Assembly (NCBI GenBank): GCA_964416765.1
Contig: CAYQEU010000001.1
Location: forward strand, 1,675 to 65,674
Source: an uncultured Candidatus Saccharibacteria bacterium
Lineage (GTDB): Bacteria; Patescibacteriota; Doudnabacteria; UBA920
Reading direction: 5' to 3'
DNA: 64,000 nucleotides
The first letter of the stretch is position 1. Every line of letters begins with the position of its first letter. The translations under genes were made by a program, and so were the position numbers. The notes under the pieces are model-generated. The model searched no databases. It saw only the letters and a program-made list of their open reading frames with translations, and had not been told where the DNA came from. Below are positions 4,489-39,569 of the stretch, piece after piece.

Positions 4489-7400
4489 ATGAATATCAGC
4501 ATAGGAAAAGTCAGGCCAGGCTTTGGTACCAGAAAAACCTTCACTTTAGTGGGCGTTTTTCTGTTTTGTGCTTTGCTGGTATTCAATGGTTTTTTCCCCT
4601 CCAGCGGTGGAATTAAAAAAGCTCATGCGGCCCCGGTAACGATCACATTTTACTCGGATGATTACTGGCAGGTTCCTGCCGGTGTGACTTCCGTAACTAT
4701 TGATGCATGGGGCGGCGGCGGCGGCGGTAATTCCATCGGCCAAGGCGGTTACGGCGGAGGCGGCGGCGGTTACGCGCATGGTACTGTTAGCGTTACCCCT
4801 GGAAATTACTATGACATTATAGTCGGCCAAGGAGGGGTGGCGGGAGAAAAAAATGGCGGCGCGGGCGGCCCCACATATTTTGGTGGTGGTGACGTGGGTG
4901 CTACTGGCGGCGATGGCGGCCAGAGTGGTATTGGACCCGGAGTGGGGGGCAATATTTTTGCCGGTGATTTTGGGTACTCAGGCGGCCAAGGCGGTTACGG
5001 CGACCAATTCTTTTCCTTGTTAGGCGGCGGCGGTGGCGGTGGTGCTGGATCTTCCGGCGCCGGCAGTACCGGTGACGATGGTATAAATGGAGGTGCTGGA
5101 GGCGCCGGCGGCCCGTCTGAAGGCGGCCAAGGCGGTCACGGCGGCGACAGCAGAAGTGATGGCGAGCCGGGCTACAGCATAGGCGGGGGCGGTGGCGGTA
5201 GCGGAGATGGCTCCTTCCCGGGAGATGGGGCAGCTGGTCAACTTTGGGTTACCTATATTCCTCCTTTAATTTGTACTTCAATCACAAGCGGCTCTGGCAA
5301 CTGGAATAGCGCCAGCACTTGGACCAATTGTGGCGGCGGCACACCCGGCTCTAATGACACCGCGGTTATTGAGGGCACCGCGCAAATCACGGTCACTGCC
5401 AGCACCACGGTAAATAACTTACAGTTTGGTGACAATTCGACACCCGCGACAAACGCGGTGCTTAAAGTTAATAGTGGCCAAACTTTAACAGTTTCCAACA
5501 CCACTACAGTTTTCAGTGCCTCTAACAATAATGTCCAAGCCACCATCCAGGATGGTACCGGTAGCGGGACGGTATCCGGTGTTTATTTGGATATAGGATC
5601 ACCCGTAATTCCTGGTACAGGATCCCACGAAACTAAATTGATATCTTCAATTTCCAATTTTTCTCTGGCGGGAAGCACAACCATGCATGGGTATTCCGGT
5701 GTTTCAAGAGACAACGACCCAACTCTGGAAATACCTTCTGGTACTATGACGACTACCAGCCTAACTACAACTTTATCTGCTTCGTGGGTGACTGCTACTA
5801 TTTCAATGAACACGGGTGCCCAGACGGGAACCCTTAAACTGACCAGTAACCCCGCATGGTCCATAAGCGGTACAGGTACCACCAATCTGAACTTAGCAGG
5901 GACGGGCAACACGGTGGAGTATTCGGGCACAAATGCTTCCATACTCAACACGACTTACAAGAACCTCAAAGTAAGCGGTGCCCTGGGTACGACGGCACAG
6001 ACCGCTACTGTTGCAGGAGCCTTCACTGTTACGGGCAGCGGTAGCATGTCTCCAAGCTCGGGAACCATGACGTTTAACAACGGGGCTTCAATAAATAATT
6101 CCGGTACCCTTAATTTCTATAATCTATCAACTTCGGTATTTTCTTCCGTTAGCTCGAGCGGTAGCTTCGGGGTAGCTTCAGGCGGCACGTTTACCATTGG
6201 GGGAGCGAGCACGTTTACCCCGGCAGCAGGCGATGTTATTACCGGTACCTCTGCTACTATTACCGGAAGCGGCACGGCCAAGGTCACCCGTACCGCGGCG
6301 ACCGCTGATTTTAATACTCAATACAATTTTGGCACTAAGACCCTGACTAACTTAACCGTGGACTACGCGGGCAGCGGGCAATCGTTGAGCAATCTCACAT
6401 ACGGTGGACTAAAAGTGAGCGGATCCATTACGGGCGCCACCGCTACTGCAACTGTGGGCACTAACTTTAATGTTACGGGCACCTTCACGCCCAGCGCCGG
6501 CACGATTACCATGAGCGGCACGAGTTCCATTACGAATTCAGGCACACTTACGTTCATTAACTTAATCATCAATACTTTGGCGTCAGTGACCGGCAACACT
6601 AGCTTTGGTGTTTCAGGCACCTTTACGGAAAATTCTGGGGCCAGTTTCGCCGCGGCTTCAGGCACGCAAACATTTAACAACGGTTCGAGCATAGTAAAAA
6701 ACAGCACCCAGCTGCTTCAGTTTAATAATCTAACGGTGGCGGCATCTGGCACCATAACCGCTAACGTGGACATGAGCATTAATAGCGCCGTAACCGTACT
6801 TTCTTCCGGCACGTGGAATGCCACGGCGGGCACGGTTACCATGATGGATGGGTCATCAATTTCAAACGCGGGAACCCTGTCCTTCCAAAACCTGACCATA
6901 GGGGCAGGGGGGACAACTAATGTCACCGCCAACGCTAGCTACACTGTTAAGGGGGGTTGGACAATAAGTTCGAACGCTACGCTATCCTCCAGCTCCGGTA
7001 CAGTAACCTTAACCGCTTCTGGAACGCCTTTTGTCATGAGTGGCTCATTTTCCCCGTCAGGAACTAATACGGTTAAGTACGCGTCCAGCACGGGCGCTAC
7101 AGTGACCAGCAACATAAGTTACCAAAATCTCGACATTTCTCCCAGCAGCGGAACTCCGACTTTTTCGGTTGGCTTCTCCAATCTTAGCGTGGGGGGTGAT
7201 CTTACTCTAACAGGAACAGTCGCGACAACCTTCAATTTGAATAATATCGCATCTTACCTGGATGTTAACGGAAACGTGAGCATCAACTCTGGGAATACCT
7301 TGGTGGCTCCGCCGAGCTCCGCGATTTTCTATATTGGCGGGAATTATACCAATTCGGGGACATTGAACAACAATGTTGGAACCATTCAGTTTGACGCCGG

Positions 7401-10400
7401 TACTACCGGTAAAACCATAACTACCAATAACCAGTTTTTCAACAATTTAGTTTTCAATAACGCCTCGGGCGGTTGGACTTATACTCCAACCCTGTACATG
7501 TCCGGGACTTTGACTGTTACCGCTGGCACACTGTCCGGTACCGGTAACGTGGAGACCGATGGGGGCAACACCACGGGGAATGGAACAATCAACATAACTG
7601 GCGGAACCTTTTCGCAGTATGCCGGGGGCAGCTTTGGTGGCAATACCAACTGGACCTTTAATGACATCCAGTTCGGGGATGATATTTCCGAAATGCATGC
7701 CACCGGAACCGGAACCATAACAGCCCGCTCTATTAGCTCGCTTTATGAGTGGCACGCCGGCAGCAAGACTTGGATTATTACGGGTACCGGCACTCCGCTT
7801 ACCAACAACGGTACGTTTTTTGGTGAGAATAGCACATTCCAGTTTACAGGCAGCACTGTTACGGTACCGGTGTTCGCATATAATAACCTAACCTTGGGGG
7901 GGAGCGGGACTTACACCATGCCGGCCTCAACCCTTACGCTCACTGGAAACCTGACCGTGACCAACGGGGCGACGGTGACAAAGGGAGCAGGAACTGTAGT
8001 GTTCGGGGGATCCACGCCTCAGACCATAACTGACAACAGTGGTACCAAACAGGACTTAGGGGCTCTTCAAGTCTCCAACACTACGCAGCCGTGGTGCAAC
8101 ATTTCTTCCACAGTATGTAATTCTTCCTGGCTGAACCGACGCAAGATTACTTTTAATAACAGCGCTTCTTCCGCGAACCTTACCAACTTCCCGGTTTTGG
8201 TTCAGCTGACTTCCGCCAACATCGACTACAACAAGACCAAAGCCAACGGCGCGGACCTTCGTTTCGTTGATGCTGATGGCACTACAGCCTTGAGTTATCA
8301 GATTGAAACCTGGAATACATCGGGAACATCCAACATATGGGTGAGGGTACCTCAGGTTAATAACACCACGACCGACTATATCTACATGTACTATAACAAC
8401 ACTGGGGCGGTAGATAGCCAGGCGGCCACCAGTGTGTGGGACTCAAACTTCAAGGGAGTGTGGCATCTCCCGGATGGTGGTACTCTTTCCACTGCGGATT
8501 CCACGAGCAACGCTAATAACGGGACTAATCAGGGAAGTACCATTGCCGCTGCAGGCAAGATTGGTGGGGGAGCGAACTTCATCAATAGCGGCAGCGACCT
8601 CGCGATTTCCAATATCTCCGTTAGCGGGGTTGCTTATACCATCAGCACCTGGTTTAATACTCCTTTTGGTAATGCCGGCAGCTACACTACCTTAACCCGT
8701 GGCGCCGCTGGTGACCACCAGGTCTTAATAGACCCGAGTAATATTCTGGGGGTATTTGATTCCAGCACCGGTTTCTATAGCTCAGGGTTTAATGTCACGT
8801 CTCTTTCCAGCGGCTGGCATCACTTAACCGCGTCAGCTACCGGCAGTACTACAACTTTCTATATCGATGGGGTAAGTGTTGGTTCTTCCTTATTTAAATC
8901 CAATACCAACATTAGTTACTTGGGTAACTGTGGCGTGTGTTCTGGCCAACGGTGGGGTTTGGCTGACGAAATGCGCGTTTCCACCGGCATTGCCCGCGAT
9001 GCTAACTGGGCCAAGGCGGACTACCTTTCCGAAAGCAACCAGATGAATACTTTTGGAAGTGAAGAATCCTCCACTGCGGTCGGGGTTGCATTGGGTTCTT
9101 CCATTAAAGCTACATCGGTAACAGTGGATGCTACTCGAGTTCTCAGCGCCAACGGCTCTAATACCCTAACTCTGGTAGGAAACGGCGCATCGGTGTTCGT
9201 GGTAAATGGCACGTTTGTCCCTTCTACCGGCACGGTTGATTTTAGCTCAGCAAGCACAACAGGAACTACTGTACCGGGCACGACTTTTTATAACCTCACC
9301 TTAAACAAAGCTTCCAATAACTTTACCTCCGGCGGTTCCATGACCGTAGGCGGTACGTTGACCATTAGTGCCGGCACCTTTACCGCACCTTCAGGCACTC
9401 TGACATTGAACGGGGACTTAGTTAATAGTGGCACCTTTACTCACAACAGCGGCACGGTAGTATTCGCCCCGACCAATGCCTCACTAAGTTCCACAATTTC
9501 AGGTAGTTCAAACATCACATTTAACAATGTCAGTGATACAACTCCCGGTTCCAGCATAATTTTCAAAAATGGGAGTACGTTCATTTTCTCCGGCACCCTA
9601 ACCGCCACGGGCACGGCGCAAAACGCGGTTTGGTTGAAGAGCGCTTCCCCAGGATCACAATGGACCGTTACTTTTAGCTCGACCCCTAGCCTTACAAACG
9701 TATCCGTGCAAGACGGTGCTTGTAATGGCGGGTTAACTTTGGCGCAAAACCCTTCCCTGCATAATGAAGGACGCAATGGTTCCTGCTGGGGCTTTATAAT
9801 CTACACTGGCGGCGGCGGTGCTTCTGACGGTGGTTCTGGCAACACCGGCGGCGAATCCGGCGGCGGCGGCGGAAGCGGCGGCGGTACAACCATTTCATTT
9901 ACTTCAAGCGGCTCTTGGACCGCGCCTGAGGGCGTAACTTCTGTTATTGTGGAAGCCTGGGGCGGCGGGGCCGGTGCCGGCAGGGGTACTACCATAGGTG
10001 GTTCTGGCGGCGGCGGCGGAGCGTATTCTAAGAAAAATTCTATCAGTGTAACCGCAGGTACTACATACACCGTAACTGTTGGCACTGGCGGAGCAGGGTC
10101 CACGGGGGGCAATGCCCAGGCGGGCGGTGACTCCTGGTTCTCTACTTCCGGTACTATACTGGCTAAGGGAGGCACGGCTGGAGCAGATAATGGCGGAGCT
10201 GTTGGAACCGGGGGCGCGGCGGGAAGCGGTATTGGTGATGTTAAATTCTCTGGAGCCAACGGAGGGACGGGTTCCAGTATCATAGGCGGAGGCGGTGGTG
10301 GAGGAGGGGGAGCTGGAACCGGCACTAATGGTAATCCAGGGGACGATGGTGTTTCTGGCGGCGGCGGCGGCAAGGGCGGCGCACTAAATGGCGGCGCTGG

Positions 10401-11244
10401 CGGTGATGGTCAATTCGGTAGCACGGGAGGTGCTGGATCAGTCCGCGCCGGCGGCGGCGGTGGTGGACAAGGCGCGGGCAGTAACGGCGGCGCAGGAGCC
10501 CGTGGTGAGATTCGGATAACCTACACAGTCAGTGGCGGCTCGGGCGGAAGCTCAACGAGTGGAAATACAACTACATTTACTTCAACTGGCTCATGGACTG
10601 CGCCAGCAGGCGTAACCTCGGTTACCGTTGAAGCCTGGGGCGCGGGCGGTTCTTCAGCCAGTGGTTCCTCGGGCGGTGCCGGACGGGGCGGTGGCGGAGG
10701 AGGAGCATATTCGTCCGCTACTATTACCGTTACTCCTGGTAACCAGTATACGGTAACGGTTGGTACTGGCGGTGCTGGACGGTCATGCTGTAGTGTTTTG
10801 GGACAAGCTGGGGGAGATTCCTGGTTCGGAACTACCGGCACATTGTTGGCAAAAGGTGGCTCCGGCGGAGACTTTTCCGGTACTGGCGCCTCAGGCGGCG
10901 CTGCGGCAGCCGGTGTAGGAACAATTAAGTTCTCTGGCGGTGCCGGCGGAAACAGCGCTGACAACACAGCGTCCTTTGGTGGCGGTGGCGGTGGCGGAGC
11001 CGGTACAACCGCCAACGGCGGTAACGGCGGCAATTCTTCCGGTGTAAATACCGTAGGAGCTGCGGGAACAGGCGGCTCCCTTAACGGCGGTAATGGCGGA
11101 ATTGGCGGAACCGGGGCCGGTTCAGTAAGAGGCGGCGGCGGCGGAGGGGCAAATGGCGCAACCGACTCTGTTGCTGGCGGTCGTGGTGAAGTTAGGATTA
11201 CCATCAATGCCACCCAAGGCGGCGGCGGTGGGGGATCCCCATAA
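4489..11244 (+). CDS. Giant secreted/surface protein (2251 aa). It has an N-terminal signal/anchor, three copies of an extremely glycine-rich domain, many PATR-like Ser/Thr/Gly beta-strand repeats, and a central DUF2341-like plus LamG/concanavalin-like module.
   Basis: N-terminal hydrophobic segment RKTFTLVGVFLFCALLVF. Gly-rich domain consensus 'W.APAGVTSV.VEAWGGGG...GGGGGAYS...ITVTPG..YTVTVGTGG' occurs at about 4650-5260, 9886-10512 and 10567-11217. The DUF2341-like signature LRFVDADGTTALSYQIETWNTSGTSNIWVRVPQV...IYMYYNN is followed by a lectin-like beta-sandwich region. There are dozens of SGT/TGT-rich roughly 20-aa beta-solenoid repeats. Confidence 0.85.
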   Translation: MNISIGKVRPGFGTRKTFTLVGVFLFCALLVFNGFFPSSGGIKKAHAAPVTITFYSDDYWQVPAGVTSVTIDAWGGGGGGNSIGQGGYGGGGGGYAHGTVSVTPGNYYDIIVGQGGVAGEKNGGAGGPTYFGGGDVGATGGDGGQSGIGPGVGGNIFAGDFGYSGGQGGYGDQFFSLLGGGGGGGAGSSGAGSTGDDGINGGAGGAGGPSEGGQGGHGGDSRSDGEPGYSIGGGGGGSGDGSFPGDGAAGQLWVTYIPPLICTSITSGSGNWNSASTWTNCGGGTPGSNDTAVIEGTAQITVTASTTVNNLQFGDNSTPATNAVLKVNSGQTLTVSNTTTVFSASNNNVQATIQDGTGSGTVSGVYLDIGSPVIPGTGSHETKLISSISNFSLAGSTTMHGYSGVSRDNDPTLEIPSGTMTTTSLTTTLSASWVTATISMNTGAQTGTLKLTSNPAWSISGTGTTNLNLAGTGNTVEYSGTNASILNTTYKNLKVSGALGTTAQTATVAGAFTVTGSGSMSPSSGTMTFNNGASINNSGTLNFYNLSTSVFSSVSSSGSFGVASGGTFTIGGASTFTPAAGDVITGTSATITGSGTAKVTRTAATADFNTQYNFGTKTLTNLTVDYAGSGQSLSNLTYGGLKVSGSITGATATATVGTNFNVTGTFTPSAGTITMSGTSSITNSGTLTFINLIINTLASVTGNTSFGVSGTFTENSGASFAAASGTQTFNNGSSIVKNSTQLLQFNNLTVAASGTITANVDMSINSAVTVLSSGTWNATAGTVTMMDGSSISNAGTLSFQNLTIGAGGTTNVTANASYTVKGGWTISSNATLSSSSGTVTLTASGTPFVMSGSFSPSGTNTVKYASSTGATVTSNISYQNLDISPSSGTPTFSVGFSNLSVGGDLTLTGTVATTFNLNNIASYLDVNGNVSINSGNTLVAPPSSAIFYIGGNYTNSGTLNNNVGTIQFDAGTTGKTITTNNQFFNNLVFNNASGGWTYTPTLYMSGTLTVTAGTLSGTGNVETDGGNTTGNGTINITGGTFSQYAGGSFGGNTNWTFNDIQFGDDISEMHATGTGTITARSISSLYEWHAGSKTWIITGTGTPLTNNGTFFGENSTFQFTGSTVTVPVFAYNNLTLGGSGTYTMPASTLTLTGNLTVTNGATVTKGAGTVVFGGSTPQTITDNSGTKQDLGALQVSNTTQPWCNISSTVCNSSWLNRRKITFNNSASSANLTNFPVLVQLTSANIDYNKTKANGADLRFVDADGTTALSYQIETWNTSGTSNIWVRVPQVNNTTTDYIYMYYNNTGAVDSQAATSVWDSNFKGVWHLPDGGTLSTADSTSNANNGTNQGSTIAAAGKIGGGANFINSGSDLAISNISVSGVAYTISTWFNTPFGNAGSYTTLTRGAAGDHQVLIDPSNILGVFDSSTGFYSSGFNVTSLSSGWHHLTASATGSTTTFYIDGVSVGSSLFKSNTNISYLGNCGVCSGQRWGLADEMRVSTGIARDANWAKADYLSESNQMNTFGSEESSTAVGVALGSSIKATSVTVDATRVLSANGSNTLTLVGNGASVFVVNGTFVPSTGTVDFSSASTTGTTVPGTTFYNLTLNKASNNFTSGGSMTVGGTLTISAGTFTAPSGTLTLNGDLVNSGTFTHNSGTVVFAPTNASLSSTISGSSNITFNNVSDTTPGSSIIFKNGSTFIFSGTLTATGTAQNAVWLKSASPGSQWTVTFSSTPSLTNVSVQDGACNGGLTLAQNPSLHNEGRNGSCWGFIIYTGGGGASDGGSGNTGGESGGGGGSGGGTTISFTSSGSWTAPEGVTSVIVEAWGGGAGAGRGTTIGGSGGGGGAYSKKNSISVTAGTTYTVTVGTGGAGSTGGNAQAGGDSWFSTSGTILAKGGTAGADNGGAVGTGGAAGSGIGDVKFSGANGGTGSSIIGGGGGGGGGAGTGTNGNPGDDGVSGGGGGKGGALNGGAGGDGQFGSTGGAGSVRAGGGGGGQGAGSNGGAGARGEIRITYTVSGGSGGSSTSGNTTTFTSTGSWTAPAGVTSVTVEAWGAGGSSASGSSGGAGRGGGGGGAYSSATITVTPGNQYTVTVGTGGAGRSCCSVLGQAGGDSWFGTTGTLLAKGGSGGDFSGTGASGGAAAAGVGTIKFSGGAGGNSADNTASFGGGGGGGAGTTANGGNGGNSSGVNTVGAAGTGGSLNGGNGGIGGTGAGSVRGGGGGGANGATDSVAGGRGEVRITINATQGGGGGGSP
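9886..11217 (+). repeat. Intragenic tandem duplication (two copies of about 630 nt, at 9886-10512 and 10567-11217) encoding the glycine-rich domain. A third, more diverged copy lies at about 4650-5260.
   Basis: DNA- and protein-level similarity is visible, e.g. TSSGSWTAPEGVTSVIVEAWGGGAG versus TSTGSWTAPAGVTSVTVEAWGAGGS, and both copies end ...RGE(I/V)RIT. Confidence 0.8.
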
Positions 11245-16940: not shown

Positions 16941-16969
16941 AAAAAAACCACCTAATCGGTGGTTTTTTT
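16941..16969. terminator. Bidirectional intrinsic terminator AAAAAAACCACC-TAATC-GGTGGTTTTTTT.
   Basis: Perfect stem flanked by an A-run and a T-run. It serves the plus-strand gene ending at 16920 and the minus-strand sodC, whose stop codon (TAG, 16952-16954) lies in the loop. Confidence 0.8.
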
Positions 16970-17467
16970 GATAATTCCGCAGGCGATGCGCGGACCTCCG
17001 CTTATGCCGGAGCCGTGTTCACCGCCTTGGTAAGGGTCGGGATTTCCGTGAATCATGAGGGAAGTACCTTCCCCGGCGAGGATGGAAGCGGCGCCATCGG
17101 AAAGGGTTACACGCGTGGTAATGGCTTCCAGGGTTCCCTTACCCTCTGAGCCGATTTCTATATTGGGTAAGTCACCAGCGTGGAAGGGATGGTTAACGTC
17201 GGGGTCGGAGTTTCCTGCCGGACCTGGATCAAAATGGCCGCCAGCGCATTTAAAGCTGTCGCCGCAATCCGCCTTTTCATGGATGTGGACGGCATGCATG
17301 CCTGGCTTCAACTTTTCCGGGTCGCCTTCCAATTGCAGGATAAGTTTAACCAGAGTTTGGGTACCGAATTGGTACTCCGTGAATACGGCATTCCCTTTGA
17401 TCCCGTCGCCTTCCAGCAATGCTTCGGCTTTCATGATTTCTTTAGGTTCGGATGAAAATAGTTCCAT
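16952..17467 (-). CDS. sodC: Cu/Zn superoxide dismutase (SodC family), apparently cytoplasmic with no signal peptide.
   Basis: HAVHIHE, GGHFDP, HPFHAGDLPN, LMIHGNPD and GGPRIACGII metal-ligand and fold motifs are present. The start is uncertain: ATGs at 17524, 17467 and 17434 are all in frame, and 17467 leaves a 17-nt gap to the upstream gene. Confidence 0.85.
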   Translation of the reverse strand: MELFSSEPKEIMKAEALLEGDGIKGNAVFTEYQFGTQTLVKLILQLEGDPEKLKPGMHAVHIHEKADCGDSFKCAGGHFDPGPAGNSDPDVNHPFHAGDLPNIEIGSEGKGTLEAITTRVTLSDGAASILAGEGTSLMIHGNPDPYQGGEHGSGISGGPRIACGIIKKTTD

Positions 17468-17484
17468 AGTTTTTGTGATGTTAA

Positions 17485-17985
17485 TTACCAGGCGCAGGAA
17501 GTGGGATCGCTGCACGCCATCCATGCCGTGGTCGGACGGACGGGATCATAAAATAGTTCAGTAGAAGAGGGGAACGTTTCCGGCCCCACGTCGCTTAAAA
17601 TCAATTTATATCTCAGGCCATCGGATTTGTAGTTATAGCCGGACCATCCTGTGGTTACGCCCAACGGGTCGGTGGGTAAGGTGCTCAAGTAAGTTGGTGT
17701 CAGGCCAGGAATGTATGCGTTGACACCGCTTGTAGTATGTCCACCACCGTTGGCGGAAGTGCCCCACCATTGGCTGCTGGTGCTTGGATATCCGTAGTTG
17801 GCGGTGTAGTAATTTTCCAACGCGGTTTTTAGTTGGGTTAAGTCTGCCTTGCGCTTAGTATCTCGTGAGGTTTTTCTTGCGCTGGCCAGTGAGGCAACCA
17901 TAATGCTGGCCAGTAACCCGATGATGCCAATTACCACCATCAACTCAATCAAACTAAAACCCTTTTGTCTCTTAAGTGTTATCAT
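17485..17985 (-). CDS. Type IV pilin-like protein (prepilin-type N-terminal cleavage/methylation domain).
   Basis: N-terminus MITLKRQKGFSLIELMVVIGIIGLLASI with a class III signal (G|FSLIE). The C-terminal region is globular and Cys-containing. Confidence 0.85.
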   Translation of the reverse strand: MITLKRQKGFSLIELMVVIGIIGLLASIMVASLASARKTSRDTKRKADLTQLKTALENYYTANYGYPSTSSQWWGTSANGGGHTTSGVNAYIPGLTPTYLSTLPTDPLGVTTGWSGYNYKSDGLRYKLILSDVGPETFPSSTELFYDPVRPTTAWMACSDPTSCAW

Positions 17986-18266
17986 GGGTTTTTCTCCAGC
18001 TTCGGGGGCTCACCGGGCGTATTGGTCATGTGGTAGCCAGCCGGGGGAGTGTAGTTAGCGGGGTTAGTCGTGGTTTTGGTGTATTCACGAATGAAATAAC
18101 CTAGTGCAGCCAGTGACGCAATGACAAATATGATAGCACCTGCCATTTTTAGGGTCGGATGCGCTGATTCAACTCGTTTAGGCGCTGGAGCTTGTTTGTT
18201 ATTTTGGTTTCCGGGGAAGAAACCACTGAAATCAACACCTTCTTCACTTTTGGGGTTTTGGGCCAT
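17982..18266 (-). CDS. Small membrane protein (94 aa) with an N-terminal EEGVDFSGFF motif. It pairs with the pilin gene (ATGA overlap) and is a paralog of 27583..27867.
   Basis: Single TM segment AGAIIFVIASLAALGYFI, and a 4-nt overlap with the downstream pilin start. Confidence 0.6.
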   Translation of the reverse strand: MAQNPKSEEGVDFSGFFPGNQNNKQAPAPKRVESAHPTLKMAGAIIFVIASLAALGYFIREYTKTTTNPANYTPPAGYHMTNTPGEPPKLEKNP

Positions 18267-25676: not shown

Positions 25677-27088
25677 TAAGACTTGATTTCCAGGTCGCTG
25701 ATGAAAAAGTTTTGCAGACCGGAACTCAGGAAATATTGTTCGACGACATTAACTTCGCGGGGCCAGCATTGCGGAAAGGCAAGCTCGACTTGGTATCGGT
25801 ACAAGCCATGGTCGGACCCGAGTTCCTTTATGGAGTTGAACATTTCCTTTACGGTTGCCGTCTGGAACTGCTCAAAGGTGGAAAGTACAAAGTTAAACCG
25901 GGTGCGGCTGCCATGGGTCATGCAAGTTTCGCCGGGTACGGTGACCGGTTGGAAGTTATCAAGCAAACCCTGCTCATTCAGAATTTGTCCCACAGTAGTG
26001 GGCTGACCAGGAAGGTAGGAATATATGGTCATGTTGCCAATTATTTTAACAGGTTTGTAAGCTGGGTCGTGCGGGTCATGGAACATTCCGACCAGTGCGC
26101 CTTCATCACCAATTGCCTGATGACGGTAGCTGGCCAGCGATAAATCAGCTGAGAGGGGATAATAAAACATCAAGGCGATGAAAATTCCACACAATAGGGC
26201 CGGCCGGTTTACAGCCTTGCCCCAGCTTACGTAGACCAAAGCCATCATGGCAAAAGCGTAGAGGCAGATTAGGTAAAGCTGGAAGGAAAAATCGGAAAAG
26301 CCGGAATACATTCCAAGCCAGTAGCAAACTACAACAAGCGCGGCGTAAAACAAGGCCCAGAGTAGGATAGCGTTCTTGAGCCAGGGTTTGCCACGAAAAA
26401 TCAGGTAAACGAATAGCGGTATACTGACTGCCGCTTCGTGGGTAAATGGCCCGCCATCAACTATGTTTTTTACAATACTGAAAGTAACAATAGCGAAAAT
26501 GAGCCCGTAAAGACGTGGGAATTTTTCCTGCTGCCACGTCGCGAGGAACTGCCAGGCTAGCAGATAGAGGATTGCTATTATTAAGATAATTCCAACCCAG
26601 GCCACCCAGTCGGGGACCAGCCCTACGAAAGCGTAACCAGTATCAATATTTTCCTGGCTGGCTTTGTGAGTGAAAGAAAGAATTGTGCCGGAAACAACTT
26701 TGAAAGTGTGATTATGGAGCAACTTGGTGCTTGAAAGCTCCCCGTGGTTTTCAGCAATTACGTAGTCCTGGTAGCTAAAACCGTAGTGGTGATAGAACCA
26801 GACAAAACTCCCAATATTGAGCAGAAAAGACAACAACACGGCCCCGACTAAGACGTTTTTCCAGCGGGCCTTAATTTTGGGCAGCGCTATTTTAAGATTT
26901 ACCGCCAGCAGAATAAGTAAAAGGTAGGCGAGGAATAGCACTACCTTGGTGAAGCTTCGCCCACCGGCGAAAATATTTATGAGTGAATGGAGGAAAAGGA
27001 AAACGTAGTCTGACCAGACGATAAGTCCGGCTAGTATTATGACGGCGGCAATGCCGCCCCAGCGCTTAAAGAGAGAGCCCAAAGCCAT
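25676..27088 (-). CDS. Large polytopic membrane protein (470 aa, about 10 TM segments plus a C-terminal soluble domain of about 140 aa), possibly a GT-C-like or ligase-like enzyme; function unknown.
   Basis: Hydrophobicity pattern. Translationally coupled to the pilin gene (23-nt overlap). Confidence 0.6.
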   Translation of the reverse strand: MALGSLFKRWGGIAAVIILAGLIVWSDYVFLFLHSLINIFAGGRSFTKVVLFLAYLLLILLAVNLKIALPKIKARWKNVLVGAVLLSFLLNIGSFVWFYHHYGFSYQDYVIAENHGELSSTKLLHNHTFKVVSGTILSFTHKASQENIDTGYAFVGLVPDWVAWVGIILIIAILYLLAWQFLATWQQEKFPRLYGLIFAIVTFSIVKNIVDGGPFTHEAAVSIPLFVYLIFRGKPWLKNAILLWALFYAALVVVCYWLGMYSGFSDFSFQLYLICLYAFAMMALVYVSWGKAVNRPALLCGIFIALMFYYPLSADLSLASYRHQAIGDEGALVGMFHDPHDPAYKPVKIIGNMTIYSYLPGQPTTVGQILNEQGLLDNFQPVTVPGETCMTHGSRTRFNFVLSTFEQFQTATVKEMFNSIKELGSDHGLYRYQVELAFPQCWPREVNVVEQYFLSSGLQNFFISDLEIKS

Positions 27089-27596
27089 GATTTTCTCCCC
27101 ATTTGGCTTGGCCAGACTCCAGATGCTCTGCCCAAAGTTGGTACATGTAGTTTAGTTCGGTAGTTCCCAAGCCGCACCCTATTCTGTTGCACCAATCGGA
27201 CATAGCACTTGGGGGTACGTATCCATATACATAGTAGTAATTGTCGTCGCCAGCGCAATTGATGCCACAAGGGTCCTTAGAGATATTTTTGGCATATGGC
27301 GATAGGTCAGTGGCCAAAAATTTCCACTGGTCAGAATAATCATAAATAGTCGAACAAGTGCCCGGGTTTTCTGCCTTACAGTCGTACTTTCCGGCATACG
27401 GAGCATGGTCTTTATCTATAGTGTATGCCTGGATGGCGGTGTCAATTTGTTTAATATCTGCTTTACGTTTGGCGTCACGAGCCAGTTTCCTTGCGGTACT
27501 GACTGATGTCAACACGATGCTGGCCAACAGTCCAATAATGGCAATCACAACGAGCAGTTCGATTAAAGTAAAACCAGCTTGTCTATTTTTGCGCAT
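27066..27596 (-). CDS. Type IV pilin-like protein (prepilin-type N-terminal domain), Cys-rich C-terminal domain.
   Basis: MRKNRQAGFTLIELLVVIAIIGLLASI N-terminus, then several Cys residues. Confidence 0.85.
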   Translation of the reverse strand: MRKNRQAGFTLIELLVVIAIIGLLASIVLTSVSTARKLARDAKRKADIKQIDTAIQAYTIDKDHAPYAGKYDCKAENPGTCSTIYDYSDQWKFLATDLSPYAKNISKDPCGINCAGDDNYYYVYGYVPPSAMSDWCNRIGCGLGTTELNYMYQLWAEHLESGQAKWGENHGFGLSL

Positions 27597-27867
27597 TGGT
27601 ATTTAGGTTTACATTTTTTACTACCCCATGAATGTTTATCTTAGTGGTGGTTTTTTTGGGGGCAGGAGGGGTAGGACGACTCACATACAAAATTATAATC
27701 TGGACGATAGTCAAAACCGCCAGGACGATGGCAAGAATCAGGATTCTTCGGGGAATGCGCTTGATTCGCGATGGCGGTGTCATAGGGATTTGGGGTGTGG
27801 TTGGTTGCTCTACTTGGAAGTGGCTAAAGTCTAAGCCCTCTTCTTCTTGAGGTTGTTCCAAAGGCAT
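27583..27867 (-). CDS. Small membrane protein (94 aa) with an EEGLDFSHF motif; paralog of 17982..18266, overlapping the pilin start by 14 nt.
   Basis: MPLEQPQEEEGLDFSHFQ... and TM segment ILILAIVLAVLTIVQIIILYV. Confidence 0.6.
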   Translation of the reverse strand: MPLEQPQEEEGLDFSHFQVEQPTTPQIPMTPPSRIKRIPRRILILAIVLAVLTIVQIIILYVSRPTPPAPKKTTTKINIHGVVKNVNLNTNAQK

Positions 27868-27968
27868 GTGCTTATTTTACCATAGTTTAATGCCTTTTGC
27901 CTGTAATTTGGCCAATATAGTGCTATTATTATGTTATGGAAATAGGAACCCCCACAACTAAGAGAAGA

Positions 27969-28553
27969 ATGTCTGAGAGAGGGTTTACCCTTATTGAATT
28001 GCTAATGGTCATAGCCATCATAGGCTTGCTGGCTTCCATTACTTTAACCAGCGTGACCGCGGTACGGGACAAAGCCCGAGACACCAGACGAGTGACCGAC
28101 GTGAAGCAGCTAGCGGGTGCCGTAGAACTTTATCGACTGGCCAATGGCACGTATCCAGTGGCCGCTGTTCCGACACTATCCATACCGGGAGTTTCCCCGA
28201 CGTACGTTAGTTCTATTCCCGCGGCTCCAGTGCCGCCGGCCCGGAACTGTACCTCTTCCCAAAACCAATATTTGTACCAATCTGACGGAACCAATTATGG
28301 AATCCAGTTTTGCATCGGGGGAAATGTGGGAAGTATCGGATCGGGTGTGGGGGTTATGTCAGACAAAGGAGCAGGTTTGCGTTATGACGTAAACGGCGAT
28401 GGGGTTGTAGACAATAATGACCCAAATTATATTGCACAATACGTTGTGCTTTTAGTAAACAGTTGCCCGCTATACCTATGTGATATCAGCGGCGATGGCG
28501 TAGTTACCGCACAGGACGCCGCGCTCTTGGCACAGATTATTGCGGGATCCTAA
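27969..28553 (+). CDS. Type IV pilin-like protein with two C-terminal dockerin-like calcium-binding repeats.
   Basis: MSERG|FTLIELLMVIAIIGLLASI, where the in-frame ATG at 27936 is an alternative start. C-terminal DVNGDGVVDNNDPNYIAQYV and DISGDGVVTAQDAALLAQII match the dockerin repeat pattern D.NGDG.V...D. Confidence 0.8.
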   Translation: MSERGFTLIELLMVIAIIGLLASITLTSVTAVRDKARDTRRVTDVKQLAGAVELYRLANGTYPVAAVPTLSIPGVSPTYVSSIPAAPVPPARNCTSSQNQYLYQSDGTNYGIQFCIGGNVGSIGSGVGVMSDKGAGLRYDVNGDGVVDNNDPNYIAQYVVLLVNSCPLYLCDISGDGVVTAQDAALLAQIIAGS

Positions 28554-33814: not shown

Positions 33815-36382
33815 ATGACAAGTAAATACTTCAAGCACGTCAGCCGTGTCCTGCTGGTTGCAGCGGTTGTTTTTTCGTGTTCAGGGGTTGTTGCCCCGCA
33901 GAGCAGCCATGCTGAGGACTTATTGCCGCGCGTTGTGGTGCGCGACCAGGCTATCCCAACACCACAGTACTACAACACTCCCAACGTGCCTCCGGGACAG
34001 AACGGGGGATCGGTTTATAAAACCCTGATCGCCGCTGACGGCACTATTTACTTGGCTGGAAATTTCGCGTTCGTCTCCGGACAAGACCGCCACAACCTGG
34101 CTGCCTTGTCGGCTGACGGCACTCTTTTGAGCTGGAACCCCAACGCGGATGGCGGAGTGTACACCATGGCCATGGACGGTAGTACTATATATATCGGCGG
34201 CGACTTTTCTCATATCGGCACCACAGCCAAAAACATGATCGCCGCTATCTCTACCAATGGGCAGTTAACTTCCTGGGCTCCGGCCCTCCCGGAAGGATAC
34301 GCTGTCGCTGGTATAGTGGTGGGAGCCAACTCGGTTTATGTCATGACTTCGCCGGGGCCGGATTATTACGGCGACCCAAATTCAGCGGTTGAGTCAGTAT
34401 TTGCTTTCGATAAAACATCGGGGGCCAAACAGTGGTCGGTAACTACCGACGGCTTTGCCATTAACGGAGCGTTAAAGGACAGCACGCTGTATGTGTCCGG
34501 AATATTCACCAAACTTGGCGGACAAGACCGCTCCGGTTTGGGGGCGATTAACGTCAGTAGTGGTCAGGTGACCTCCTGGAACCCAAACCCCAGCAACGCC
34601 CACCCAGAGTATTCGTATAATCTCGTGCAGGCGCTGACTCTTTCGGGAAACACTTTGTACGTGGGAGGAAGCTTCTCTTCCATTGCCAACCAATCCCGTT
34701 CTTACATTGCCTCGTTCGACGCCAGTACCGGCAACCTTACAAACTGGAACCCACAAGTGAGCTTTGGTTACGTTAATGAATCACCATCCATAATGTCTAT
34801 GGCCGTTGATGCTAACGGCAAGCTATATGTTGGCGGCAGCTTTGGTGATGACAACCATTCTTCTTTCTATAACTTATTTATTCTTGACCAGAACGGCATG
34901 GAATATTACTGGCCTATCGACATGGAAGCGAACGCGGATAACGGCTATTACGCCCCAGCGCTCGCCAACGTCGCGATTAGCGGCCATTACATGTATGCCA
35001 GTTCATATAATGACTTCGCCCGCTATGACCTGAACAGCCCCGTGCCTATGACCACAGTTAAGCCGGTATATCCTGGGCCTATTCCGCCTCCTGTCGTGCT
35101 GCCTCCGAACGTCCACGCGGGACAATTGCTAAAATTCAAGAGCAACAACGCGGTTTATCTAGTAGAACCGGAAGGGCTGTACCCGTTCCGCAACTACTAC
35201 TCCTTCCAGCTATACCAAGGCGCCAGCAATGAAAAAATCACCAACATAAATAATGTTATTGACCCATACACGGTTACTACGGCATATGGTTACTCTTCTG
35301 CCGATGAATATTTGGGCCAGTATATTCCCGCGGGACAGCCTTATGTGCCCGGCACTTTGGTTAATTCCAAAGGCACGGTATTCCTCATAATGGTAGGGGA
35401 GCAGATCCCGTTCCGGAACAAGGAATCCTTCCTGGGCCTTGGTTATTCCTTTGCCGATGTCATCAACGCCGACTTAACCAACTCAGGACTTACCCAGACT
35501 CCTGGCATATATACGGATAAAGTTCCACACACATGGGGCACATGGTTAAACTATAACGGCACGATTTACTATTCGGATGAAACCGGCATGATCGGTGTTC
35601 CTGACTGGAGCACTTTCCTTTCTAACCACGGTTTGCCGCAAATGATCAAACAAATGAACCAGTACGACCTCGATGTCTACTTCCAGGACCCGAACCAGCC
35701 AGTACTGCGCTACGCTGACCCGCGGGTAGCTTTGTCTCCAAACGACCCGCCGTATGACCCGGCCACTTACCGCGACCAGACCCGGGTTTATGACATCTAC
35801 AATATTCAGTATGCGCTTGAAGATTATTACTATGCGAATAACAGCCAGTACCCAGCCACCCTCAATGATTTAGTACCGGGCTACATTGGCGAACTGCCGG
35901 TGGCTCCAACCCCGGCTGACGGTTCCTGTACCGCCGACCAGAATACCTATAAGTACGTGCGTACGGACTCTTCCAACGTCGCGTTGACATTCTGTCTTGG
36001 TGCCGCGGTTGATAAGTATGTGGCGGGAGTAAATACTGACCACAGCCCTACCGCGGCCGACCACCGCGACATTACCCGCATAAATGATATTTACCAGCTG
36101 GATTCCGCCATTGAAAACTATCGCTATGACCACAGCAATAAGTACCCGAGCGCGTTATCTGACCTGACCCCTGCCTACATAGGGCAACTTCCAGTGGCGC
36201 CAACTCCGGCTGACGGCACTTGCAGCGCGCAACAAAATACCTACGCCTACCAAAAGCTAACCGATACTACCTTTAAGATGACTTTTTGTTTAGGCGGTAG
36301 TTACACTGGATACAGTGCGGGGTTCCGTACCATTGACCAGACGGGCCAAATTGATGGCGGCCCCGTTGGTCCCACTTATTAA
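33815..36382 (+). CDS. Secreted 855-aa protein: an N-terminal delta-60-repeat-type beta-propeller, then middle domains, then two tandem C-terminal pilin-headgroup-like domains.
   Basis: Signal peptide. Propeller repeats GNFAFVSGQDRHNLAALSADGTLLSWNPN, GDFSHIGTTAKNMIAAISTNGQLTSWAP, GIFTKLGGQDRSGLGAINVSSGQVTSWNPN, GSFSSIANQSRSYIASFDASTGNLTNWNPQ. The two C-terminal repeats of about 85 aa (R..D.Y.I..A.E.Y...N..YP..L.DL.P.YIG.LPVAPTPADG.C...QNTY.Y......FCLG) align with the globular domain of the dockerin-pilin at 27969..28553. Confidence 0.8.
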   Translation: MTSKYFKHVSRVLLVAAVVFSCSGVVAPQSSHAEDLLPRVVVRDQAIPTPQYYNTPNVPPGQNGGSVYKTLIAADGTIYLAGNFAFVSGQDRHNLAALSADGTLLSWNPNADGGVYTMAMDGSTIYIGGDFSHIGTTAKNMIAAISTNGQLTSWAPALPEGYAVAGIVVGANSVYVMTSPGPDYYGDPNSAVESVFAFDKTSGAKQWSVTTDGFAINGALKDSTLYVSGIFTKLGGQDRSGLGAINVSSGQVTSWNPNPSNAHPEYSYNLVQALTLSGNTLYVGGSFSSIANQSRSYIASFDASTGNLTNWNPQVSFGYVNESPSIMSMAVDANGKLYVGGSFGDDNHSSFYNLFILDQNGMEYYWPIDMEANADNGYYAPALANVAISGHYMYASSYNDFARYDLNSPVPMTTVKPVYPGPIPPPVVLPPNVHAGQLLKFKSNNAVYLVEPEGLYPFRNYYSFQLYQGASNEKITNINNVIDPYTVTTAYGYSSADEYLGQYIPAGQPYVPGTLVNSKGTVFLIMVGEQIPFRNKESFLGLGYSFADVINADLTNSGLTQTPGIYTDKVPHTWGTWLNYNGTIYYSDETGMIGVPDWSTFLSNHGLPQMIKQMNQYDLDVYFQDPNQPVLRYADPRVALSPNDPPYDPATYRDQTRVYDIYNIQYALEDYYYANNSQYPATLNDLVPGYIGELPVAPTPADGSCTADQNTYKYVRTDSSNVALTFCLGAAVDKYVAGVNTDHSPTAADHRDITRINDIYQLDSAIENYRYDHSNKYPSALSDLTPAYIGQLPVAPTPADGTCSAQQNTYAYQKLTDTTFKMTFCLGGSYTGYSAGFRTIDQTGQIDGGPVGPTY

Positions 36383-38478: not shown

Positions 38479-38576
38479 GCATATAATAAGGCTAAATAAT
38501 GCAACTTTTGGTATGCTTATATCGTGCTAATACTGCCAGTTGCCCAATTACTGGCACTTTATTAATAAGAACCACA

Positions 38577-39569
38577 ATGAATAAGTTAAAGGTTTTTTTG
38601 ACTGGAGTATTAACTCTGGCGTCGATTGCGGGAACTGCAGTGGCCCCCATGGTCGTTAAAGCAGCTTCATGCGCTGATGCCTCTATTCCTTTGTATGGAA
38701 TGCTTAAACCAGATGGCAGGCATTTTTATACCACCAATTACCAGGAAGTTCAGCAAGTTGCCCAATATAACTATCAGTTTATGGGTATTGTAACCAGGAT
38801 TTTCGCCCAGCGTGTTTCAGGCACCGTCGCCATCAAACGGTACTATAACTCAGCAACTGGCGCGCATCGCTATTTCGCCTCTGACTCCATTGATACTTCC
38901 AAGGGCTCCTATGAAGGGGAGTTAGGTTATATCTCAACTTCTCCTTCCAATAACCTGAACAATATATTTTTCCAAGTCAGTGACAGTAAACAAGATGTAA
39001 TTTTGAGCATCGACGATAACAATATTTGGGGTTATGGTTTGGTGGGGCCTGACGCGTCATATAATCGTTCCGGAACTTTAGGGTGGTCATGTGGTGCTCA
39101 AAGCGCTATTACGGCTCAGGTATCCCTACTGCGCTACTATAATCCAAAGACCAAACACCACTTCATGACTACCAGCAAGACAGAAGGAAATGCCTTGGTA
39201 AAAAATTCAGGATATAAATATGAAGGAATAAGCGGATATATCTTTGCCATGGAAGAAGGCTTGAATTTCGCCGCTAACCATCCTGTATACAGAATGTACA
39301 AAAGGAGTTCCGATGACCACTTGTATACAACAAACGAATCTGAAAAGGCATTCTTGATGACCCAGGGGTACACATTTGAAGGAACCATGGGTTGGACAGC
39401 CTCTGATCAAGGCGATCAAGGAATTCCCATGCACCGGTTGTTCAACCACACAACCAATGACCGATTATATACTATTGATAACTTGGAAACCCAGCGCGCC
39501 ATAGCCGCTGGTTACACGGAAGAGTCGCCGTTGGGTTACGCTAATCCACGGTTCCAATACGGCTACTAA
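38577..39569 (+). CDS. Secreted protein with four repeats of about 45 aa, similar to DUF5648-like (R.YNP.T.DH.YTT...E) repeats.
   Basis: ATG at 38577 gives signal peptide MNKLKVFLTGVLTLASIAGTAVAPMVVKAAS. Repeats KRYYNSATGAHRYFAS.., LRYYNPKTKHHFMTTSKTE.., YRMYKRSSDDHLYTTNESE.., HRLFNHTTNDRLYTIDNLE.. Confidence 0.65.
   Translation: MNKLKVFLTGVLTLASIAGTAVAPMVVKAASCADASIPLYGMLKPDGRHFYTTNYQEVQQVAQYNYQFMGIVTRIFAQRVSGTVAIKRYYNSATGAHRYFASDSIDTSKGSYEGELGYISTSPSNNLNNIFFQVSDSKQDVILSIDDNNIWGYGLVGPDASYNRSGTLGWSCGAQSAITAQVSLLRYYNPKTKHHFMTTSKTEGNALVKNSGYKYEGISGYIFAMEEGLNFAANHPVYRMYKRSSDDHLYTTNESEKAFLMTQGYTFEGTMGWTASDQGDQGIPMHRLFNHTTNDRLYTIDNLETQRAIAAGYTEESPLGYANPRFQYGY

Follow-up and report, generated by a model that had tools for sequence, protein, structure and literature searches.

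The 64,000-nucleotide (nt) stretch of contig CAYQEU010000001.1 analysed here (hereafter, the window) encodes an 855-amino-acid (aa) secreted multi-domain protein (33815..36382, + strand) whose last ~205 aa form two tandem domains, R1 and R2, that, as judged by sequence comparison, are homologues of the globular head of Patescibacteria type IV pilins of the GspG/T2SSG kind. Both domains start exactly where the pilin's hydrophobic N-terminal helix segment, α1N, would end. The protein is not a pilus subunit, and cannot be one, since it has neither the class III leader nor α1N. Helix-less heads of this type are a recurrent module of Patescibacteria surface proteins: they are usually the last domain and often occur in tandem. 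The domain order in the 855-aa protein is signal peptide, β-propeller, three ~45-aa repeats and two helix-less pilin heads, laid out as follows (HMM, hidden Markov model; E, expectation value):

33815..36382 (+): whole gene, the single long open reading frame (ORF) in this range, encoding the 855-aa protein
33815..33916 (+): putative Sec signal peptide, aa 1-34 (MTSKYFKHVSRVLLVAAVVFSCSGVVAPQSSHA, then ED), judged from sequence
33932..35089 (+): DUF5122/PQQ_2-type β-propeller, aa ~40-425; DUF5122 (PF17164) 42.7 bits (cut-off 27), PQQ_2 27.7 bits
35117..35656 (+): three ~45-aa repeats, aa 435-479, 510-553 and 572-614, found with a local iterated HMM; no Pfam family
35765..36040 (+): R1, first helix-less pilin head, aa 651-742; head HMM domain E 4e-35
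36059..36370 (+): R2, second helix-less pilin head, aa 749-852; head HMM domain E 4.6e-42; a short C-terminal tail comes after it

Sequence comparison of the C-terminal domains with pilin heads

An earlier note on this DNA, made from the sequence alone, had described an 855-aa ORF with two C-terminal repeats that resemble the head of a dockerin-bearing pilin encoded in the same window and lack its hydrophobic helix, and our analysis bears this description out. The repeat sequences that it quoted are in frame, running from nt 35771 (RDQTRV...) and nt 36065 (RDITRI...). R1 and R2 are identical at 46 of 89 positions (52%) in an ungapped alignment (E 9e-35). When the C-terminal 213 aa were compared with the dockerin-pilin (27936..28553, +), R2 aligned at 32% identity (E 2e-15) and R1 at ~30% (E 7e-15), both alignments beginning at pilin residue 48, right after the hydrophobic helix. 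In the 35-40 residues that precede R1 and R2 there is neither a hydrophobic 19-mer (Kyte-Doolittle maxima of -0.58 for R1 and 1.22 for R2; on this 19-residue scale, transmembrane (TM) or α1N segments score at least 1.8) nor a G-F-T-L-I-E motif, and Pfam and NCBIfam scans of the 855-aa protein returned no N_methyl match (PF07963/TIGR02532). Having no prepilin cleavage motif and no polymerisation helix, R1 and R2 are therefore subject neither to processing by prepilin peptidase nor to filament assembly.

The last 213 aa have no Pfam or NCBIfam match. Against Pfam T2SSG (PF08334; gathering threshold 21 bits) R1 and R2 yield nothing at E<=1, while heads of their relatives do pass (P0197 at 24.6 bits, P0212 at 25.2 bits). 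A homologue search with the same tail retrieved 76 proteins, mostly 135-160-aa Patescibacteria prepilins carrying PF07963, at 35-53% identity. A comparison between profiles was also made: for hhalign of the helix-less head profile (A2) against a profile of 30 bona fide prepilins (A6), a limit of E 0.01 had been set beforehand, and the outcome was a probability of 100% and E 1.4e-43, with the match spanning pilin columns 46-153, that is, everything after α1N. Searched against the PDB, the helix-less head profile has GspG/EpsG major pseudopilins as all of its top eight matches (E 0.007-0.23), over α1C and the Y-P loop. With the 213-aa tail as the only query, a PDB sequence search turned up nothing beyond chance antibody matches and was set aside; the profile was required instead.

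Both repeats conform to the head pattern, ~95 aa long, of R-D-x-x-R...Y-P...P-x-A-P-x-P-x-D-G-x-C...N-x-Y-x-Y...F-C-L-G...G, and keep every invariant column of alignment A2. These columns include a pair of invariant Cys residues which the alignments and the AlphaFold2 model place one in the Pro-rich loop that leads into strand 1, the other within strand 2. The core residues are retained in R1, in R2 and across strains, which argues for purifying selection on the heads.

Predicted fold of the heads

AlphaFold2 predicts the same topology for R1 and R2: a 26-residue helix, a short helix and three strands. For R2 the predicted local distance difference test (pLDDT) score is 94-98 in model 1 and 87-98 in model 2. 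Model 1 left R1 unfolded, with all homologues aligned to R2; in model 2, for which the alignment included tandem-head relatives, R1 has a helix at 225-250, a short helix and three strands, with a block-mean pLDDT of 85-95 over ~230-300 and of 75 at 301-310. An amphipathic α1C helix packed on an antiparallel β-sheet, the mark of a globular pilin head, is thus predicted in both repeats, as judged by AlphaFold2, hhalign and the PDB matches. The top Foldseek match in the PDB is the truncated pilin PilE (4noa; probability 0.95-0.96), followed by PilA1 of C. difficile, TTHA1222, PAK pilin, PilV and S. sanguinis pilus subunits. The structural check proposed in the earlier note has accordingly gone the way it anticipated, with a helix on a three-stranded sheet and pilins as the top structural matches. 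As to what the heads are, we regard the fold evidence as supportive and the sequence evidence as decisive.

The gene, its leader, the propeller and the central repeats

An identical 855-aa protein is present on four contigs, one of them a 681-kb NCBI contig, and is identical to P0347 from NCBI. Variants in other samples are 854-855 aa long and 94-99% identical, and the residue changes in the head-bearing protein between strains are conservative. The identical copies on four independent contigs, together with these variants, lead us to reject a chimeric or artefactual ORF. The combination of propeller, triple repeat and two heads was found only in the protein's own 90% cluster, which comprises close strains, and a search of species-representative genome contigs with the full 855-aa protein found no relative.

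The leader has a basic n-region, a hydrophobic core and S-H-A ahead of the putative cut site, from which we infer a Sec-type rather than a prepilin (class III) leader. The earlier proposal that pilin heads have been recruited into a secreted non-pilin protein thus holds at the level of homology and, as far as secretion is concerned, follows from this reading of the leader. A lipoprotein anchor via Cys22 was considered and rejected: a lipobox is unlikely because Cys22 is not conserved, being replaced by Tyr (C22Y) in the 94%-identical variant P0344. At E<=1 the only Pfam matches on the protein are DUF5122, PQQ_2, Reg_prop, Mcl1_mid and HofO, and the Pfam and NCBIfam scans reveal no recognisable anchor.

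The N-terminal domain had been described as a delta-60-repeat propeller. The propeller part of this description stands, DUF5122 scoring well above its cut-off, and the delta-60 label does not, as TIGR02608 reaches 18.4 bits, below its cut-off of 76.5. Homologues of the full protein, 712 in number, match the propeller part only and cover 28-51% of the query among the 120 matches listed. In other phyla, DUF5122 propeller relatives end in the C-terminal domain of the type IX secretion system (T9SS; PF18962) in many cases, in immunoglobulin-like (Ig-like) domains, or, in some cases, in dockerin or cohesin.

A homologue search with the middle region returned nothing; the three repeats emerged by local HMM iteration on head-bearing proteins. 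They follow the pattern G-T-V-Y-L-I ... R-x-P-F-x-S ... F-x-S-x-G and are common to 22 other head-bearing Patescibacteria proteins (23 in all), where they usually likewise form a triplet. In most of the 22 relatives the triplet stands directly after the signal peptide, with Ig-like domains (Kre9_KNH, TIG, CARDB) between it and the C-terminal head. AlphaFold2 models repeats 2 and 3 as small units of three β-strands and a helix (pLDDT ~75-89). The repeats bear a faint similarity to EccB1/EccB5 of type VII secretion (Foldseek E ~1.2-2.9, HMM E 0.14), and we treat an EccB1-like nature of the triple repeat as a lead rather than a result. Seemingly strong matches of the middle-repeat profile to the designed propellers 'Pizza' and 'Cake' were discarded: they are sums of a short G-T-V-Y hairpin motif, each stretch having E ~50.

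Helix-less heads across Patescibacteria

An exhaustive search of 1.84 billion representative proteins with the 213-aa tail yielded 998 representative clusters at E<=1e-3, of which 219 reached E<=1e-10. The best 150 matches are mostly long proteins (300-830 aa) in which the match lies at the extreme C-terminus, many having two matched stretches. Sorting the 149 best of the 998 clusters by what precedes the first head, we found helix-less ('soluble-preceded') heads in 98, a pilin-like TM helix without a cleavage motif in 42 and prepilins in nine, in a ranking that favours tandem proteins because the query is itself a tandem. Among the occurrences sampled by motif from species-representative genomes, 76 of 88 are pilins, many of them modular and 300-860 aa long. 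The helix-less heads sit behind signal peptides or upstream membrane anchors, Ig-like stalks and the same triple repeat: 36 of the 98 helix-less proteins have an N-terminal signal peptide or anchor, like the window protein, and in 46 the N-terminal domain is cytoplasmic and a TM anchor lies far upstream of the head. The head is nearly always the last domain and ends 1-2 residues past a conserved G-I-Q. What had been noted as a single case is thus real and far from singular, belonging to a large family of surface proteins that carry such heads.

The named source genomes are all Patescibacteria (Nomura-, Doudna-, Falkow- and Saccharibacteria, Paceibacterota, Parcubacteria). Several third-party annotation (TPA) bins labelled 'uncultured Gammaproteobacteria' (L008, L010, L013, L014, L016 and others) have Patescibacteria-type pilins and contigs of ~0.5 Mb, and their label is probably wrong.

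Pilin and non-pilin heads are 45-54% identical and often mutual nearest neighbours. The head loop P-x-A-P-T-P-x-D-G-x-C is near-invariant across pilin and non-pilin copies; a second loop, Y-P-x-S-L-x-x-L-x-P-x-Y, is common to the TM-preceded and soluble classes and more variable in prepilins. The last residues of α1N ('SARxKSRDAKR') persist in many helix-less copies. Taken together, the sequences suggest a path from a prepilin via an uncleaved, membrane-tethered head to a soluble head, and the direction from pilin to helix-less form is supported by the profile matches to GspG pseudopilins and by the α1N remnants kept in helix-less copies.

Some members deserve a separate mention. P0004, P0072, P0237, P0254 and others have a pilin-like TM helix ('GLLSSVVLLSLNSARAKSRDA') before the head and no G-F-T-L-I-E motif; upstream of this helix, P0004 and P0072 have zinc-ribbon and RDD membrane domains. 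TM-preceded heads of the P0004 type are possibly uncleavable, membrane-locked pilin derivatives. Six small head-bearing proteins of ~135-147 aa (P0229, P0232, P0262, P0268, P0299 and P0328) start with 'G-F-[VIL]-[ED]-I...', the acidic residue being at +3/+4 and not at +5, and could constitute a non-canonical prepilin class. In L040, L041, L042 and L048, modular pilin genes with this type of head (268-431 aa each) stand in tandem, two to four in a row; L041 comes from a Falkowbacteria metagenome-assembled genome and the other three from TPA bins labelled Gammaproteobacteria. Finally, a 572-aa protein with one head (aa 379-497) is encoded in L067 (6277-7995, +) immediately upstream of the gene for tandem-head P0212, and head-bearing genes therefore also occur as adjacent paralogues.

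Pilins and gene neighbourhood in the window

Further features of the window are these:

27936..28553 (+): modular prepilin with a C-terminal type I dockerin and the same head type; N_methyl 31.4 bits, Dockerin_1 33.6 bits, NCBIfam IV_pilin_GFxxxE, head HMM E 1.3e-27
27066..27596 (-): second prepilin, with a different head; N_methyl 39.8 bits; its α1C region alone matches R2, E 0.002
17485..17985 (-): third prepilin, with a different head; N_methyl 35.2 bits; head HMM match partial, profile positions 2-50 only
17485-18266 and 27066-27867 (-): paralogous gene pairs, each of a 94-aa one-TM protein (no Pfam match) and a prepilin (166 and 176 aa)
16952-17524 (-): gene for a Cu/Zn superoxide dismutase (Sod_Cu E 7e-29), lying immediately downstream of the third prepilin gene, which it overlaps
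75-4370 (+): 1431-aa ORF that runs off the window start, no Pfam match
4489-11244 (+): 2251-aa ORF with Gly_rich_2 and DUF2341 domains
38499-39569 (+): 356-aa protein whose N-terminus has a hydrophobic stretch (probable signal peptide) and which contains three DUF5648 stretches (E 2e-51); its gene lies a short way downstream from the rpsF-ssb-rpsR-efp block

A likeness of the repeats to all three window pilins did not hold up: one of the three prepilins, that at 27936..28553 (+), has the R1/R2-type head, and the other two share the α1C helix region only. The dockerin of this pilin could recruit cohesin-bearing partners to the pilus; no cohesin was matched by Pfam on any window protein scanned, both giant ORFs included. 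In each paralogous pair the gene for the 94-aa protein lies directly upstream of the prepilin gene and overlaps it. The two giant ORFs (1431 and 2251 aa) probably encode further surface proteins.

The gene for the 855-aa protein sits between glutamate dehydrogenase and efp/rpsR/ssb/rpsF. Neither it nor the two relatives that we examined adjoin genes for pilus machinery or minor pilins, and none for pilus machinery was found in the window; the two relatives lie among housekeeping genes, beside paralogues carrying heads or repeats. An operon link of the gene to pilus machinery was rejected, as no such genes are nearby.

What the heads may do

We tentatively favour, at a probability of roughly 0.4, the reading that the heads are autonomous extracellular binding modules on a wall-associated surface adhesin. 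The head would have been freed from the pilus through loss of α1N, with intermediates that still carry an uncleaved pilin-like TM helix, and would now work as a binding module in its own right. The central repeats would hold the 855-aa protein at the cell envelope, with the propeller and the two heads displayed, and the heads would equip a short-range, non-retractile adhesin to bind as a pilus with this type of head does. This reading builds on the architecture of the family, about half of which is anchored at the other end, with Ig-like stalks between the head and the N-terminal repeats and with the heads most distal. Such a placement, distal on a protein that already has an anchor, speaks for binding rather than retention as the role.

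Several considerations weigh against this adhesin reading. The high conservation of the heads (45-54% identity) and their near-invariant loop are unlike an adhesin that tracks variable host receptors; a conserved partner, or a role that is purely structural, would account for them better. The head may be C-terminal for historical reasons, through gene fusion, and not for functional ones, and the envelope-anchoring role of the repeats is inferred from the faint similarity to EccB1 (Foldseek E ~1.4, HMM E 0.14). Furthermore, the Foldseek matches of the heads to solved pilins are weak (E>=0.02, best 0.022; TM-score 0.4-0.57), and the pilin assignment therefore rests mainly on sequence.

Pilus docking, in which the heads would bind the cell's own type IV pilus (the fibre surface, or a tip or minor-pilin complex) and the propeller would ride along as an accessory adhesin, is the chief alternative, though in our estimate an unlikely one. 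By analogy, and at similarly low odds, the protein might then be a functional counterpart of PilC/PilY1 or a modular pilin assembled in trans. The same genome has a pilin with this head type and a dockerin, suggesting that the pilus is used as a scaffold, and the strong conservation of the heads across lineages fits a conserved self-partner. There are precedents for propellers on pili: PilX2 of TM7x, a proposed pilus adhesin, fuses a β-propeller to a pilin module (PMC11623550), and a short motif at its C-terminus keeps the propeller-bearing non-pilin PilC/PilY1 at the tip of the pilus (bioRxiv 10.64898/2026.09.18.752573). Docking is, however, poorly matched by the gene neighbourhoods, which contain no pilus machinery or minor pilin genes beside the 855-aa protein gene or those of the two relatives examined, and by the membrane anchoring of about half of the helix-less family through an upstream TM segment, a poor fit to riding a retractile fibre. 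The propeller itself is DUF5122, Pfam reporting no PilC/PilY1-type family. Head-head contacts are, moreover, minor compared to the α1N core in type IV filaments, which also counts against docking.

Envelope retention, which we hold to be rather improbable, would have the C-terminal heads tether the soluble secreted protein to the surface of its producer, that is, to the wall, the S-layer or the membrane pilin pool. Such a role would parallel that of T9SS C-terminal domains, dockerins or SLH domains in other propeller proteins. It would agree with the sorting or anchoring modules in which DUF5122 propeller proteins elsewhere typically end (PF18962, and in some cases dockerin or cohesin), with the lack of any other anchor recognisable in the Pfam and NCBIfam scans of the 855-aa protein, and with the position of the head as nearly always the very last domain, closing 1-2 residues after G-I-Q. 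As against this, 46 of the 98 helix-less members already have a TM anchor, which makes a second one redundant there, the triple repeat is better placed and could serve as anchor instead, and the heads show no similarity to any known wall-binding domain. Also improbable, to our minds, is a system for decorating the pilus in trans, in which the heads would dock Sec-secreted or membrane proteins (propellers, Ig-stalk adhesins) onto pili or the membrane pilin pool. If this were true, the heads and the dockerin-bearing pilins would together make the pilus a programmable scaffold for host attachment by Patescibacteria episymbionts.

That the secreted heads act as decoys or mimics, competing with pili for pilus-specific phages, host receptors or antibodies, strikes us as very improbable. 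The resemblance to pilin heads is what speaks for it, along with the ability of recombinant α1N-truncated pilins to compete with pili for receptors. The heads are, however, embedded in large multi-domain and often membrane-anchored proteins, unlike a released decoy, and R1 and R2 are poor mimics of the genome's own pilin head because they are just ~30% identical to it. Finally, we give next to no credence to the heads being decaying remains of accidentally fused pilin genes, or the ORF an assembly chimera: nothing but the absence of Pfam matches on R1 and R2 speaks for this, whereas the ORF recurs identically on four independent contigs with 94-99% variants elsewhere and conservative substitutions, all family-invariant residues including the Cys pair are kept in both copies, and ~100 protein clusters share the arrangement.

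Implications for the Patescibacteria cell surface

Type IV pili are central to host attachment and to life on host cells in Patescibacteria (the candidate phyla radiation, CPR), and the other surface proteins of these bacteria are almost entirely unannotated. As a standard and often duplicated C-terminal module in ~100 clusters of large proteins, secreted or membrane-anchored, the helix-less head offers a handle on this 'dark' surface proteome. The family is one that Pfam does not capture for the 855-aa protein and that modular-pilin surveys based on the N-terminal motif are bound to miss, and its apparent intermediates (prepilin, uncleaved TM-anchored head, soluble head) are documented here. 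Tandem pilin heads that are soluble by nature are an unusual find for pilus biologists and raise the question of what an isolated head binds. If the heads dock on pili or share a ligand with the pilus, long-range capture by the pilus would be linked to short-range adhesion.

Comparison with known systems

What is known is the fold and the superfamily; what appears to be undescribed is the natural, duplicated, helix-less form on Sec-secreted proteins, widespread in one phylum. In the full-text literature we found no description of α1N-less pilin heads as modules of non-pilin Patescibacteria proteins; modular pilins, Bdellovibrio Bd0109 and the tip adhesin PilC/PilY1 come nearest in concept. With GspG and type IV pilins R1 and R2 share the α1C helix with its '...A-L-E-x-Y....Y-P' motif on a small β-sheet. 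Unlike them, the window protein has no class III signal peptide (cut after Gly/Ala, Phe1, Glu5) and no hydrophobic α1N, and its heads are set 650 and 750 residues into a Sec-type protein. The conserved Cys pair of the heads, which runs from the Pro-rich loop before strand 1 to strand 2, we take to be distinct from the C-terminal D-region disulfide of type IVa pilins. A parallel exists in the archaeal FlaF and FlaG, in which a filament-subunit (archaellin-like) domain is reused in non-polymerising envelope proteins, as in the window protein. These differ from the window heads in fold and lineage and keep the N-terminal TM helix; FlaF binds the S-layer.

Modular pilins such as S. sanguinis PilB and PilC comprise more than 1,200 proteins in 264 architectures (Raynaud et al. 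2021, PMC8179133), and are defined by an N-terminal pilin module with IPR012902, through which they polymerise (PMC8179133). The window protein resembles them in joining a pilin module to unrelated functional modules (propellers, lectins, dockerin), and differs in its inverted order and in having neither the IPR012902/N_methyl motif nor a polymerisation helix. The dockerin-pilin (27936-28553) does fall under this definition, as do many 300-860-aa Patescibacteria pilins, whereas the 855-aa protein does not; a survey keyed on IPR012902 cannot find helix-less heads because the N-terminal motif is absent from them.

PilC/PilY1 and PilX2 are, like the window protein, large propeller proteins, and both are functionally coupled to type IV pili. 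PilC/PilY1 docks by a 12-residue β-strand plug rather than by pilin heads, and its propeller is C-terminal, unlike the N-terminal propeller of the window protein. PilX2 of Saccharibacteria TM7x consists of a pilin module and a heptabladed propeller (PMC11623550) and, unlike the window protein, keeps the N-terminal helix. Bdellovibrio Bd0109 is likewise an exported (secreted or periplasmic) non-pilin protein, with a proposed pilin-like fold and a proposed action on the pilus (PMC3818213); its fold is N-terminal, single and only predicted, and is accompanied by YD repeats (PMC3818213), and we liken the two by description, not by sequence. Recombinant α1N-truncated pilins made for crystallography (such as 4noa PilE and 1dzo PAK) have the same domain boundary as R1 and R2 and are their best structural matches: those, however, are laboratory constructs, whereas the truncation in the window protein is natural, duplicated and fused to other domains.

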